From UHGV virus genome UHGV-0074613: 23,589 nucleotides of DNA, one strand, 5' to 3'. The DNA is from a virus. The translations under genes were made by a program, and so were the position numbers. Shown here one piece after another: positions 7,132 to 13,849 of the stretch (positions are counted from its first letter, which is position 1; every line of letters begins with the position of its first letter). The notes under the pieces are model-generated. The model had not been told where the DNA came from, did not search any database, and was given only the letters and a program-made list of their open reading frames with translations.

Positions 7132-7602
7132 ATGGTAGAGCAGACCCTGAAAGAAGTAGTGAAAGCGATGTGCAAAGCATATCCCGGTGGCCGCGAGGCT
7201 ATGGCTGGTGCATTGGGCATGTCAGTAACTCAGTTCAATAACAACCTGTATGAGAAAAACGGCTGTCGTTTCTTTGAGGTAACAGAGCTGGAAGCGATGG
7301 AAGACATTTCCAACACATCGCTGGTGGCTGATTACTTTGCTAAGCGTCGTGGTGCTTTGCTGGTGGACAGGCCACTCCTGGAAGATCTGGACCGCGTTGA
7401 TTTATTCAGTCGGGCAATACGTACATCTGCGGCGCGTGGGCAGGTTGACCAAATCATTGAGCAGGCTCTGGAAGATGGGGTGATCGAGCAGCATGAAGCA
7501 GAAGAAATTATGGAACATCACCGCCGCCACCTGGCAGCACGTGAGGAAGAGATTCAGGCAATCATCACTCTTTTCGGACGTAAGAAAAGCCAAAAAAAGT
7601 GA
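7132..7602 (+). CDS. YdaT/CII-like regulatory protein
   Basis: ATG 7132 with SD AAGGA at 8-nt spacing; follows the cro-like gene as in Rac-type ydaS-ydaT pairs. Family assignment is by position and general resemblance only. Confidence 0.5.
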   Translation: MVEQTLKEVVKAMCKAYPGGREAMAGALGMSVTQFNNNLYEKNGCRFFEVTELEAMEDISNTSLVADYFAKRRGALLVDRPLLEDLDRVDLFSRAIRTSAARGQVDQIIEQALEDGVIEQHEAEEIMEHHRRHLAAREEEIQAIITLFGRKKSQKK

Positions 7603-7663: not shown

Positions 7664-8002
7664 ATGAACAGTGTAAACCGATTCAGACCAGTTAAGCAAT
7701 TCAGATGCCCACCGCTGGTGGGGCGTGATGCCCCGTTCGGCTATGTGGGAATAGTACGTACAGCGAACGGAAGCCACAACTACCAGTGTGGTTCAGAGAT
7801 GGTAGAGGCGTTTACTCAGATGAATGAGAAGGGGCGTGAGGAGTGGCTGAAGTTGACCGGCGATTCAGAGACCACCGTGGAATCGAAGTCAGGGTTATCC
7901 GTTGGGAGCCCGAGACCGGACGCGTTATATACCTTCGCCAAGGGTACGATCATGAGTGCTTCAGCCCTCTTGAACAATTCCAGCGTAAGTTTACAGAGTT
8001 AA
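7664..8002 (+). CDS. Hypothetical protein (112 aa)
   Basis: ORF with SD GGAGAA 6 nt upstream of ATG; sits between the CII-like and O-like genes. Confidence 0.45.
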   Translation: MNSVNRFRPVKQFRCPPLVGRDAPFGYVGIVRTANGSHNYQCGSEMVEAFTQMNEKGREEWLKLTGDSETTVESKSGLSVGSPRPDALYTFAKGTIMSASALLNNSSVSLQS

Positions 8003-8011
8003 AGGACGACC

Positions 8012-8896
8012 ATGAGCACTAAATTAACCGGTTACGTTTGGGACGCTTGCGCTTCTTCAGGCATGAAGTTGTCCAGCGTTGCCATCATGGCGCGTCTGGC
8101 AGACTTCAGCAGCGATGAGGGAGTTAGCTGGCCTTCAATTGGCACTATTGCTCGTCAGATTGGCGCTGGTGAAAGCACTGTACGCACAGCGATATCCCAA
8201 CTGGAGAAGGATGGCTGGCTTACTCGTAAACAGCGCCGCAATGGCAACCGTAACGCCTCAAACGTGTATCAACTGAATGTCGCGAAGCTTCGTGATGCAG
8301 CTTTCTCTCACCTGTCAGATTCTGACGCATCAAAATCTGATGCATCAAAATCCGACCCGTCAAAATTTGAGGCATCAAAAAACGACGATAACGGCACTTT
8401 TGACCCGTCAGAATCTGGTGGGGATCCGTCAGTAAAATCAAAACCAGAACCATCAGTTAAAAATAAAACCCCTTGTCCGGTTCCTTCGAAACCTGACGAC
8501 GTCGATTCTGATCCTGCTGTTCAGGTTCTTGACCATTTCAACCAGGTCACCGGGTCTGAATACGGTCGTGGTGGTCGTAACAAAACCACGCTGGGATACA
8601 TCCGTGGTCGTCTCGCTGAAGATTACACCGCTGATGATTTGAAACTGGTGGTGGATTATCTCAACGCCAAGTGGGCAGACGATTCGAAGATGAGTGACTA
8701 CCTGCGCCCTAAAACGCTTTTCGGCGCGGAAAATTGCACGGAGTACTTCGAGAAGGCCAAGAAGTGGCGAAAGAGCGGTAGCCCGAAATGTGTCAACGGG
8801 CGCTGGGTCAAAGAGTCTGATCCGGTCCCTGTTACTCGTGAATCCTACGATAACGTTGATTACGCACTGCCTGAGAACGCGGGGTTCCGCCAATGA
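8012..8896 (+). CDS. Replication initiation protein (O-like: N-terminal wHTH + conserved phage C-terminal domain)
   Basis: N-terminus ...SWPSIGTIARQIGAGESTVRTAISQLEKDGWL is a winged-HTH typical of phage initiators; C-terminus ...QVTGSEYGRGGRNKTTLGYIRGRLAEDYTADDLKLVVDY matches the conserved replication-protein C-terminal domain; internal iterons. Confidence 0.75.
   Translation: MSTKLTGYVWDACASSGMKLSSVAIMARLADFSSDEGVSWPSIGTIARQIGAGESTVRTAISQLEKDGWLTRKQRRNGNRNASNVYQLNVAKLRDAAFSHLSDSDASKSDASKSDPSKFEASKNDDNGTFDPSESGGDPSVKSKPEPSVKNKTPCPVPSKPDDVDSDPAVQVLDHFNQVTGSEYGRGGRNKTTLGYIRGRLAEDYTADDLKLVVDYLNAKWADDSKMSDYLRPKTLFGAENCTEYFEKAKKWRKSGSPKCVNGRWVKESDPVPVTRESYDNVDYALPENAGFRQ
8308..8382 (+). repeat. 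Iteron array (putative replication origin) inside the O-like gene
   Basis: Four 15-bp direct repeats (TGACGCATCAAAATC, TGATGCATCAAAATC, CGACCCGTCAAAATT, TGAGGCATCAAAAAA) plus one degenerate copy; followed by a fairly A-rich stretch (8440-8470). Confidence 0.6.
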
Positions 8897-9366
8897 GCAT
8901 GCTGAAAGAAGTTCAGGCCTTCCTTGCCAAAAATCCTGGGTCCGGAAGTGCGGAGATTGTGGAGGCGTTCAGCCAGTACAGCGCACGAAGTATTCAACGC
9001 ACAGTGTGCCGACTTTATGACCTGAACCGTGCTACTCGTGAAACCGTTGGTAACCGCTTTGTCTACTCAGCTGATATGCCACTGGATATGGCGAAAGGGT
9101 GCGCTTCTCCTGCAAAAGTCGTTGTTCAACAAATGCCACGACAGGTAGTTACTCATCTCATCGAAAAAGCCGATCACCTTATGAGTCGTGGACTTTATCG
9201 CCGCGCTGCCACGATGTTCATGGAAGCGTTCGAAGGGGCTGTTCATACCGAAGAGCGAGACTATTGCTTACGCCAGCGTCAGCGCTGCCTAAAGAAATGC
9301 GCAGTGGACAAAAAGCGGCAGGAGGAATGGTGTCTTGCCGGGAAGTTTTGTGGAGGTGACATGTGA
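8893..9366 (+). CDS. Hypothetical regulator, possibly PerC-like C-terminal domain
   Basis: 157-aa ORF coupled to the O-like stop (ATGA). C-terminal RGLYRRAATMF...RQRQRCLKK resembles the G-(L/Y)-WRRAA core of PerC/Pch regulators (recollection, not searched). Confidence 0.4.
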   Translation: MSMLKEVQAFLAKNPGSGSAEIVEAFSQYSARSIQRTVCRLYDLNRATRETVGNRFVYSADMPLDMAKGCASPAKVVVQQMPRQVVTHLIEKADHLMSRGLYRRAATMFMEAFEGAVHTEERDYCLRQRQRCLKKCAVDKKRQEEWCLAGKFCGGDM

Positions 9367-10031
9367 ACTACGAGCTGATTTACGCCGATCCTCCATGGTC
9401 ATACGACAACACAGCCAGCAACGGTGCAGCAGAAAACCATTATGGAACGATGAAGCTCATCGACATTAAACGCCTTCCAGTGTGGGAGCTTTCTGCTGAA
9501 AACGCCGTGTTGGCCATGTGGTACACCGGGACGCATACCCGCGAGGCTATAGAGCTGGCGGAAGCATGGGGATTCAAGGTCCGCACGATGAAGGGCTTCA
9601 CCTGGGTCAAGTTCAATCCGCTCGCGGAGAAGCACATCAACAAAGCGCTGCAGGCTGGGGGTGTGGAGGACTTTTACGATTTCCTCGACCTGTTGAACGT
9701 CCAGACCAGGATGAACGGCGGCAACCACACCCGAGCCAATACAGAAGACCTGTTGATCGCCACAAAAGGGAAGGGGTTAGAGCGCCTGAACGCCGGTATT
9801 AAGCAGGTTGTTTACAGCCCACTCGGTGTACACAGCCAAAAGCCCTGGGAAGTTCGCCACCGCTTAGAGCTACTTTACGGTGATGTATCGCGCATTGAAT
9901 TATTCAGCCGCAACGGTTCGCCAGGCTGGGACCACTGGGGCAATGAAGCGGAAAACCCTTCGGTGTTTATGGCTCCTGGTTATGTCTGTCCGGTTGATAT
10001 GCAGGATGAGGTGACCAATGCCGGGTATTGA
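9363..10031 (+). CDS. MT-A70-family N6-adenine DNA methyltransferase
   Basis: N-terminal YADPPWSY (DPPW motif); 222 aa; GTG start overlapping the upstream stop with SD GGAGG. Confidence 0.8.
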   Translation: MNYELIYADPPWSYDNTASNGAAENHYGTMKLIDIKRLPVWELSAENAVLAMWYTGTHTREAIELAEAWGFKVRTMKGFTWVKFNPLAEKHINKALQAGGVEDFYDFLDLLNVQTRMNGGNHTRANTEDLLIATKGKGLERLNAGIKQVVYSPLGVHSQKPWEVRHRLELLYGDVSRIELFSRNGSPGWDHWGNEAENPSVFMAPGYVCPVDMQDEVTNAGY

Positions 10032-13687: not shown

Positions 13688-13791
13688 AAACCAGTTAAAT
13701 TTAGATGTGATATTTACTTTTCCCGAATCTGTGTTAATTTTTATCTAACGATGGGCTTTGTATGTCCACGGTTAGAAAGAATATCAAAAAA

Positions 13792-13849
13792 CCTCGCTTC
13801 GGCGGGGTTTTCGCGTTTTTAGGGCTGCCAATTGGTGGCCTTTTTTATT
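13792..13849 (+). terminator. Tandem intrinsic terminators (tR'-like) between Q and the lysis genes
   Basis: CCTCGC-TTCG-GCGGGG hairpin plus TTTTCGCGTTTTT (13792-13820); GCCA-ATTGG-TGGC hairpin plus TTTTTTATT (13823-13849). PR'/qut presumably in 13690-13790 but not pinpointed. Confidence 0.65.

Follow-up and report, generated by a model that had tools for sequence, protein, structure and literature searches.

PerC and its Pch homologues are single-domain proteins of 89-104 aa in which a helical core, residues ~6-56 in PerC, is followed by a conserved C-terminal half with the pattern NxxEIKQAV...MG...FRxYK. perC has a GC content of 35% and is a member of the perABC operon on the EPEC plasmid (pEAF/pMAR2). 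PchA, PchB and PchC are encoded on EHEC prophages; there, pch stands alone as a moron, ~470 bp past the lysis genes and before those for the terminase, and the DNA upstream of it has 33% GC. Pch is a DNA-binding protein that breaks up the silencing complex of H-NS, StpA and Hha and so activates LEE1 (PMC4764244). Activation of LEE1 has been shown only for PerC and PchABC, and other PerC-like proteins are inert or repressing (PMC11773190, PMC5931665); one such protein, encoded by the PICI element EcCIMP1, represses LEE1, two more from PICIs left it unaffected, and the authors of that work suspected a relationship between PICI PerC-like proteins and the ANR family (PMC11773190). ANR (AraC negative regulator) proteins, such as Aar and Rnr, consist of three helices and have a conserved Cys (PMC4038620); they bind AraC-family activators as well as H-NS (PMC4983702, PMC5570504) and act as anti-activators through protein-protein binding (PMC4038620, PMC4983702). 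A further branch of the PerC family comprises Orf40 of Shigella phage SfV and YfdN of E. coli K-12 (b2357, in the prophage remnant CPS-53). The searchable literature mentions yfdN solely as the 'K12 unique PerC homologue', deleted as a precaution from a ler-lacZ reporter strain (PMC5931665).

We analysed a 23,589-nucleotide stretch of the virus genome UHGV-0074613 (hereafter, the window), which is a lambdoid, SfV-like prophage. Sequence comparison identifies one of its early genes as encoding a divergent member of the YfdN/SfV-Orf40 branch. The gene belongs to the early backbone of the phage and is not a moron, and its product is more likely a regulator of the phage cycle than a virulence switch. 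The sequence-only reading from which we started had placed an ORF at positions 8893-9366, directly after a replication gene. Both points held: the ORF lies on the plus strand and encodes 157 aa from an ATG that overlaps the TGA of the 294-aa gene before it.

Table 1. Features of the early region and of the PerC-like gene (positions in the window)
Feature	Position	Strand	Basis
Integrase gene	50..1039	-	
cI-like S24 repressor gene	6054..6773	-	
pR-position promoter-like site TTGTCA-18-AATAAT, between cI-like and cro-like genes	6767..6796	+	Consensus promoter scan
cro/YdaS-like gene	6786..7109	+	
CII/CP76 gene	7102..7602	+	
Upstream replication initiator gene, 294 aa	8012..8896	+	Pfam Phg_2220_C (2.2e-17), HTH_36, DnaD_N
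PerC-like gene, YfdN/SfV-Orf40 type, 157 aa	8893..9366 (including stop codon)	+	ORF list, PHROG 1324, YfdN BLASTP, dN/dS
Predicted N-terminal winged helix-turn-helix (aa 1-62) with a beta-hairpin wing and three helices	8893..9078	+	A1 profile vs PDB, AlphaFold2
Variable low-confidence linker, aa 63-82	9079..9138	+	pLDDT 58-72; gap-rich, length-variable region of alignment A1
Predicted C-terminal three-helix PerC/ANR-type module, aa 83-147	9139..9333	+	
PerC-homologous core, aa 91-141, with GLYRRAA and conserved R129 and C132	9163-9315	+	
C-terminal tail, aa 148-157, family motif (W/C)xLAGxFxGG, predicted disordered	9334..9363	+	pLDDT 54-65
Downstream MT-A70 DNA methyltransferase gene, 222 aa, GTG start	9363..10031	+	Pfam MT-A70 (1.2e-23)
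Terminator-like sites with a long G+C-rich stem, behind Q	13788-13842	+	Promoter/terminator scan

The gene is tightly packed between its neighbours. Its junction with the initiator gene, which also matches the replication initiation/primosomal PHROGs phrog_11896, phrog_428 and phrog_391, is a stop-start overlap (ATGA). At its other end, its stop codon overlaps the GTG start of the methyltransferase gene (GTGA), whose ribosome-binding site, GGAGG, sits within the 3' end of the PerC-like gene; the methyltransferase itself matches phrog_359 (1.5e-94) and the PADLOC model MTase_II (3.4e-53). Three results place the ORF beyond chance. First, it matches phrog_1324 ('transcriptional activator') over its full length (E 9e-45, aa 1-157 on profile positions 15-169 of 172). 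Second, a HMMER search of 1.84 billion cluster representatives returned 54 relatives at E<=1e-3, most of them 140-165 aa long and aligned end to end. Third, dN/dS is 0.16 against a 97% identical relative and 0.18 against a 71% identical one. The ORF is thus a real gene under purifying selection (dN/dS about 0.17), and most substitutions relative to the 71% relative fall in the central linker. Eleven public contigs carry a gene call for the identical protein, and the GC content of the gene (51.5%) is typical of the window (49.6%).

YfdN aligned with the protein at 34% identity (BLASTP, E 5e-26), and tblastn picked out full-length homologues, 30-36% identical, in 53 phage records, 51 of which were covered over at least 80%. 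These include SfV orf40 and genes of SfII, SfIV, mEp460, ST64B and Stx2 phages, several of them annotated 'PerC family transcriptional regulator' or 'YfdN'. Neither the GTDB species representatives nor IMG/VR yielded close relatives, and at the megablast level the gene was absent from complete E. coli genomes. The neighbouring DNA of the window matches prophages of Klebsiella and E. coli at 80-84%. The protein shares its full-length two-domain architecture with YfdN, SfV Orf40 and Sb43 of Salmonella phage ST64B, and their loci share its gene order, which runs from the rep gene through the PerC-like gene, a DNA methyltransferase gene, a gene for a LexA DNA-binding domain (LexA-DBD) and RusA onward to Q. 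It differs from the homologues in sequenced phages in its low identity to each of them, and from YfdN-type loci in the enzyme encoded downstream, which is of the MT-A70 type here and of the Dam type (PF05869) there.

We next considered the architecture of the protein. The AlphaFold2 model has a mean pLDDT of 88.4, with both domains above 90 and the linker between them in the low range given in Table 1, and predicts helices at residues 3-13, 19-25 and 31-43, a hairpin at 47-60 and helices at 83-98, 102-115 and 119-147. A profile of 28 two-domain family proteins (alignment A1) matched BlaI (1p6r, E 1.5e-4), MarR and MecI in the PDB, while a Foldseek search of BFVD returned generic winged-helix matches only. 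The extra N-terminal domain proposed from the sequence is thus there, but its length of about 95 aa is not: the A1 profile and the model divide this region into a winged helix of ~62 aa and a linker of ~20 aa. The first 62 residues have the fold of the BlaI/MecI and MarR/ArsR winged-helix repressors; unlike those proteins, this one lacks their dimerisation or sensor domain, and all of its Pfam and NCBIfam matches to them fall below cut-off. From the modelled fold, DNA binding by the N-terminal domain is probable. We rejected the idea that this domain arose by duplication of the winged helix in the initiator, since comparison of the two revealed no similarity. In the C-terminal tail, G150 is nearly invariant in A1. 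The succession of winged helix, linker and PerC-type module is a feature by which we recognise the YfdN/SfV Orf40 subgroup; the full-length match to phrog_1324 and a position between rep and DNA methyltransferase genes in the early-right operon are others, and all are found here.

Profile comparisons establish that the C-terminal module and the N-terminal core of PerC and Pch are homologous. The Pfam PerC profile (PF06069) aligned residues 92-137 with profile positions 6-51 of 90 at 19.8 bits (E 9.7e-4), which is 2.8 bits below the gathering threshold of 22.6 bits. The match is borderline, and the window protein alone does not pass the family's own cut-off; the same is true of its 97% identical relative (P0001, 21.9 bits). 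Other relatives do pass (P0002, 25.6; P0003, 29.6; P0004, 25.4; P0005, 23.6 bits), as do YfdN (36.1 bits) and SfV Orf40 (38.9 bits), and 27 of the 28 A1 members match the profile at E<=0.01, the best at 2.3e-9. When A1 was aligned by hhalign with 13 sequences comprising EPEC PerC (pMAR2), a group-1 Pch protein from an O157:H7 genome and their relatives (alignment A3), the two families matched over 51 columns with a probability of 97.45% (E 8.9e-12), which places residues 91-141 on PerC residues 6-56. Directly compared, EPEC PerC is 33% identical over 46 aa without gaps (BLASTP). Two PHROGs that cover the C-terminal part only matched at 5e-16 and 2e-12, and an NCBIfam scan of the protein gave no match above cut-offs. 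The resemblance to PerC that had been noticed from the sequence is thus true, although the homology is remote.

Conserved residues follow the same register. The C-terminal stretch quoted in the first reading lies at residues 91-136 and does contain the conserved core, but the motif given for it, G-x-WRRAA, was misworded: the protein reads G-L-Y-R-R-A-A, which is the Pch form and is close to GFYRRAA of PerC. Within RGLYRRAA (residues 99-106), R104 and A105 are invariant in A1, and R129 and C132 are nearly so; the same positions are conserved in A3. The common PerC motif accordingly consists of (K/R)G(L/F)YRRAA, a second helix, and a third helix with a conserved Arg and Cys (R129 and C132 here; C47 in PerC). 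The shared part covers only the first ~50 residues of PerC. Pfam searches aligned none of the two-domain members beyond profile position ~57-59, so that the C-terminal half of PerC and Pch (profile ~57-90) is missing and a short LAGxFxGG tail stands in its place, and the N-terminal winged helix is an addition that PerC and Pch do not have. Like PerC and Pch, the protein is carried on a horizontally acquired element.

The same module resembles ANR proteins, with which it shares a small three-helix fold and the conserved Cys. The NCBIfam ANR model (NF033650) scored the window protein at 14.6 bits (E 0.022), below its cut-off of 32 bits. It matched 19 of the 28 A1 members, of which only P0032 exceeded the cut-off (36.2 bits) while also matching Pfam PerC, and it matched YfdN (E 3.6e-5), SfV Orf40 and EPEC PerC (E 0.0017) too. 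These cross-matches show a real relationship at family level, and they make the ANR fold and the PerC core look like a single helical module. ANR proteins differ in being stand-alone proteins of 40-80 aa encoded beside AraC-family activators, whereas the window protein has 157 aa and two domains.

We then examined where the gene sits in the phage genome. Beyond CII/CP76, the order is a 112-aa ORF, the initiator, the PerC-like gene, the MT-A70 methyltransferase, a 72-aa ORF, a protein consisting of a LexA DNA-binding domain only, RusA, KilA-N, DUF968, the Q antiterminator and holin; from cro to Q, the genes form a single-strand string in which neighbours are contiguous or overlapping. The promoter-like site at the pR position is the sole sigma-70-like plus-strand site between 5300 and 14000. 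None was found between pR and Q, although a weak internal promoter could escape so crude a consensus scan. Plus-strand terminator-like sites with a long G+C-rich stem occur only behind Q. SfV has the same order (rep orf39, orf40, dam, orf42, RusA and on to Q), as do Stx2a_1447, ST64B, 118970_sal3 and metagenomic relatives, and the remnant yfdO-yfdN-yfdM of K-12 CPS-53 preserves it.

With moderate confidence, we propose that the protein is an early phage regulator that is transcribed from pR after infection or induction and acts through a winged helix on DNA and a PerC-type module. The gene would be silent under CI repression and would be expressed from pR only once the phage infects or is induced. 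The winged helix may tether the protein to DNA, and the PerC-type module may then contact or displace another protein; candidate precedents are the relief of H-NS/StpA/Hha silencing by Pch and the binding of transcription factors by ANR proteins. Any influence on host genes would follow from induction as a side effect, and a trait expressed in the lysogen would not be expected. Some points weigh against this proposal. The missing C-terminal half means that the activity of PerC cannot simply be transferred to the protein, its own score stays under the Pfam PerC threshold, and the promoter scan could have missed a weak internal promoter of the kind annotated in SfV, where the dam promoter lies inside orf40.

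The gene is nearly always accompanied by a gene for a DNA methyltransferase. A two-domain gene adjoins a DNA methyltransferase gene in 11 of 12 tabulated contexts, usually with overlapping stop and start codons, and the enzymes fall into at least five types, spread over three different backbone contexts. The gene downstream encodes an MT-A70 enzyme in the window and in loci L001 and L012, a Dam enzyme (PF05869) in L015, L021 and L106, Dam (PF05869) followed by a separate C5 methylase in L105, a 761-aa C5+D12 enzyme in L013 and a 694-aa C5+Dam enzyme in L020. In L103, type I HsdM and HsdS lie just upstream, so that the PerC-like gene stands between the type I methyltransferase and Q, and in P0011 a YfdN-like protein and Dam are fused in one ORF. 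The exception, L019, has neither a methyltransferase nearby nor an adjacent rep gene. By a scripted count, a Dam-type or MT-A70 gene follows directly in 85 of 100 loci, a figure to be read knowing that 80 of the 100 are IMG/VR loci from near-identical YfdN phages and are not independent.

One possibility raised by this pattern is that the protein is devoted to the neighbouring phage methyltransferase, as its partner or its controller. It might set the timing of the enzyme's expression (as a restriction-modification C-protein does, or as Com does for Mu mom), assist the enzyme, or bind DNA in a way that depends on methylation. Adjacency across such varied enzymes, the fused ORF, the scripted count and L020, where the gene has left the replication module and kept its methyltransferase neighbour, speak for a partnership. 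We nonetheless consider it unlikely. Adjacency may merely mirror a conserved backbone slot of one phage lineage; six of the 80 near-identical loci run straight from the PerC-like gene to the LexA-DBD gene and retain the PerC-like gene with no methyltransferase, as does L019; the short PerC, Pch and ANR proteins have no methyltransferase link; and no interaction or regulatory site was found. The wider generalisation, drawn from guilt by association across these loci, that proteins combining a winged helix with a PerC/ANR module are dedicated companions of phage DNA methyltransferases, controlling the timing of a potentially host-toxic enzyme or reading methylation, is more speculative still. 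A component of anti-phage defence was also considered for the PerC-like protein and was rejected, as PADLOC-DB matched the neighbouring methyltransferase only.

The other flanking gene suggests a role in replication, in which the protein would work as an accessory of the Phg_2220_C-type initiator in place of the lambda P or DnaC-like loader that the prophage lacks. Translation of the PerC-like gene is coupled to that of the initiator gene, the upstream ORF belongs to the same rep family in 92 of the 95 loci that have an upstream ORF, no helicase-loader gene was recognised in the replication region of the window, and a fused rep and PerC-like ORF is annotated in Salmonella phage 118970_sal3. 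L020 speaks against this role: it has a complete module of lambda O and an IstB/DnaC-like protein, with DUF1367, and yet carries a PerC-like gene, which is apart from the replication gene and abuts the methyltransferase. Its methyltransferase adjacency with no replication neighbour weakens a replication-accessory role and leaves room for a link to methylation. The location of the gene between a type I methyltransferase and Q in L103, and the lack of an adjacent rep gene in L019, argue in the same direction, and the protein resembles neither known loaders (Pfam, PHROG, NCBIfam) nor the winged helix of the initiator. We therefore regard this role as improbable.

Equally doubtful is the function suggested by the sequence-only reading, which was that of a lysogenic-conversion regulator that is expressed in the lysogen and cross-activates virulence or H-NS-silenced regulons, in the way that PerC and PchABC act on ler. 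Homology of the C-terminal module to PerC and Pch favours this idea, as do reports that Pch relieves silencing without a strict target sequence (PMC4764244) and that prophage induction raises pch expression (PMC5931665). The genomic setting does not support it. A backbone early gene under CI repression argues against a lysogenic-conversion factor, and this one lies inside the pR early operon, is coupled to the genes on either side, has no promoter-like site of its own and is typical of the window in GC content, against 0.35 for perC and 0.33 for the pch upstream region. Moreover, pch occupies a different, moron position, the C-terminal half of PerC is missing from the protein, the gene belongs to the backbone in non-pathogen contexts such as K-12 CPS-53 as well, and PerC-like proteins other than PerC and PchABC leave LEE1 unaffected or repress it (PMC11773190). 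Least credible of all is that the protein is unrelated to PerC and resembles it by chance through a short helical TPR-like hairpin, a notion that we can virtually discard given the profile-profile match, the agreement of 27 of 28 family members, the conservation of GLYRRAA and of the helix-3 Arg and Cys, and the prior classification of YfdN and Orf40 in the PerC family by both NCBI and Pfam. Separately, an assignment of the core as a TPR repeat, drawn from the long repeat proteins P0020 and P0045, was set aside because their Pfam matches are incoherent and probably reflect compositional bias.

An early phage regulator is thus the function we favour for the YfdN-type protein of this prophage, and its setting bears on how the family is annotated. 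The label 'PerC family transcriptional regulator' is already attached to hundreds of enterobacterial prophage copies, including the one in E. coli K-12. For the YfdN branch, the description 'virulence activator' rests on about 50 common residues and is contradicted by the CI-repressed position of these genes in the early backbone; this position makes YfdN-type prophage genes unfit to be read as lysogenic-conversion factors. Through one helical module, the two-domain branch connects the PerC family with the ANR family; this suggests that the module is a protein-contact unit to which the winged helix adds DNA binding. If these proteins were indeed companions of methyltransferases, a phage-cycle function would fall to the YfdN branch and perhaps to the ancestral PerC/ANR module as well, and the virulence regulators PerC, Pch and ANR would have been recruited later. 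The near-constant adjacency to unrelated kinds of methyltransferase provides a testable lead to the function of K-12 YfdN.

Proteins of the PerC family were cross-matched by the NCBIfam model for ANR (AraC negative regulator), whose cut-off is 32 bits. P0032, a relative of the PerC-like protein, scored 36.2 bits and was also matched by Pfam PerC, while PerC of EPEC itself matched the ANR model with an E-value of 0.0017, and K-12 YfdN was cross-matched as well. The PerC and ANR 'families' appear to have a single three-helix module in common, in which a Cys is conserved.

The slot adjoining the PerC-like gene holds unrelated kinds of DNA methyltransferase across the window and its relatives (L013, L015, L020, L103, L105 and L106), namely MT-A70, Dam (PF05869), C5+D12, C5+Dam and type I HsdM/S. 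A methyltransferase adjoins the PerC-like gene in 11 of the 12 tabulated contexts, and it is missing from this position in 6/80 YfdN-phage loci. In the L103 prophage, the type I HsdM/HsdS genes lie directly 5' of the PerC-like gene, and a porin moron sits between Q and holin. Two fused ORFs were also observed: P0011 (382 aa) joins a YfdN-like protein to Dam, and gp059 of Salmonella phage 118970_sal3 joins a replication protein to the PerC-like protein's N-terminal portion. These could be genuine fusions or frameshift artefacts where stop and start overlap.

Coordinates of the features discussed (window positions unless a locus is named)
Feature	Position	Strand	Match
P0032	L019:3501-3980		
EPEC PerC	L002:18487-18756		
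YfdN	L010:6388-6882		NCBIfam ANR model
DNA methyltransferase adjoining PerC-like gene	9363..10031	+	
118970_sal3 gp059	L018:2529-3842		
HsdM/HsdS genes and porin moron of the L103 prophage	L103:1-2551 and 4048-5148		
tRNA-Arg(TCT)	5666..5741	-	
112-aa ORF between cII and initiator gene	7664..8002	+	
LexA DNA-binding-domain-only protein, 117 aa	10205..10558	+	PF01726 E 3.5e-19; phrog_362 'transcriptional repressor'
Q-type antiterminator, 281 aa	12842..13687	+	PF03589 E 7.7e-42

The 112-aa ORF had no match in a Pfam search; in relatives the same slot is taken either by a DUF4222 gene of ~60 aa or by an ORF of 108-112 aa that lacks annotation. The tRNA gene lies inside the prophage, with left-operon genes on one side and the cI-like repressor gene on the other. 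Residues 179-226 of the antiterminator gave a sub-threshold match to a DnaJ-type CXXCXGXG zinc finger.

The LexA-like protein lacks the S24 peptidase domain, and its gene is kept a little 3' of the methyltransferase in SfV (orf42), Stx2a_1447, L012, L015 and L106. This protein could be a non-cleavable LexA mimic in the early operon that interferes with the host SOS response.
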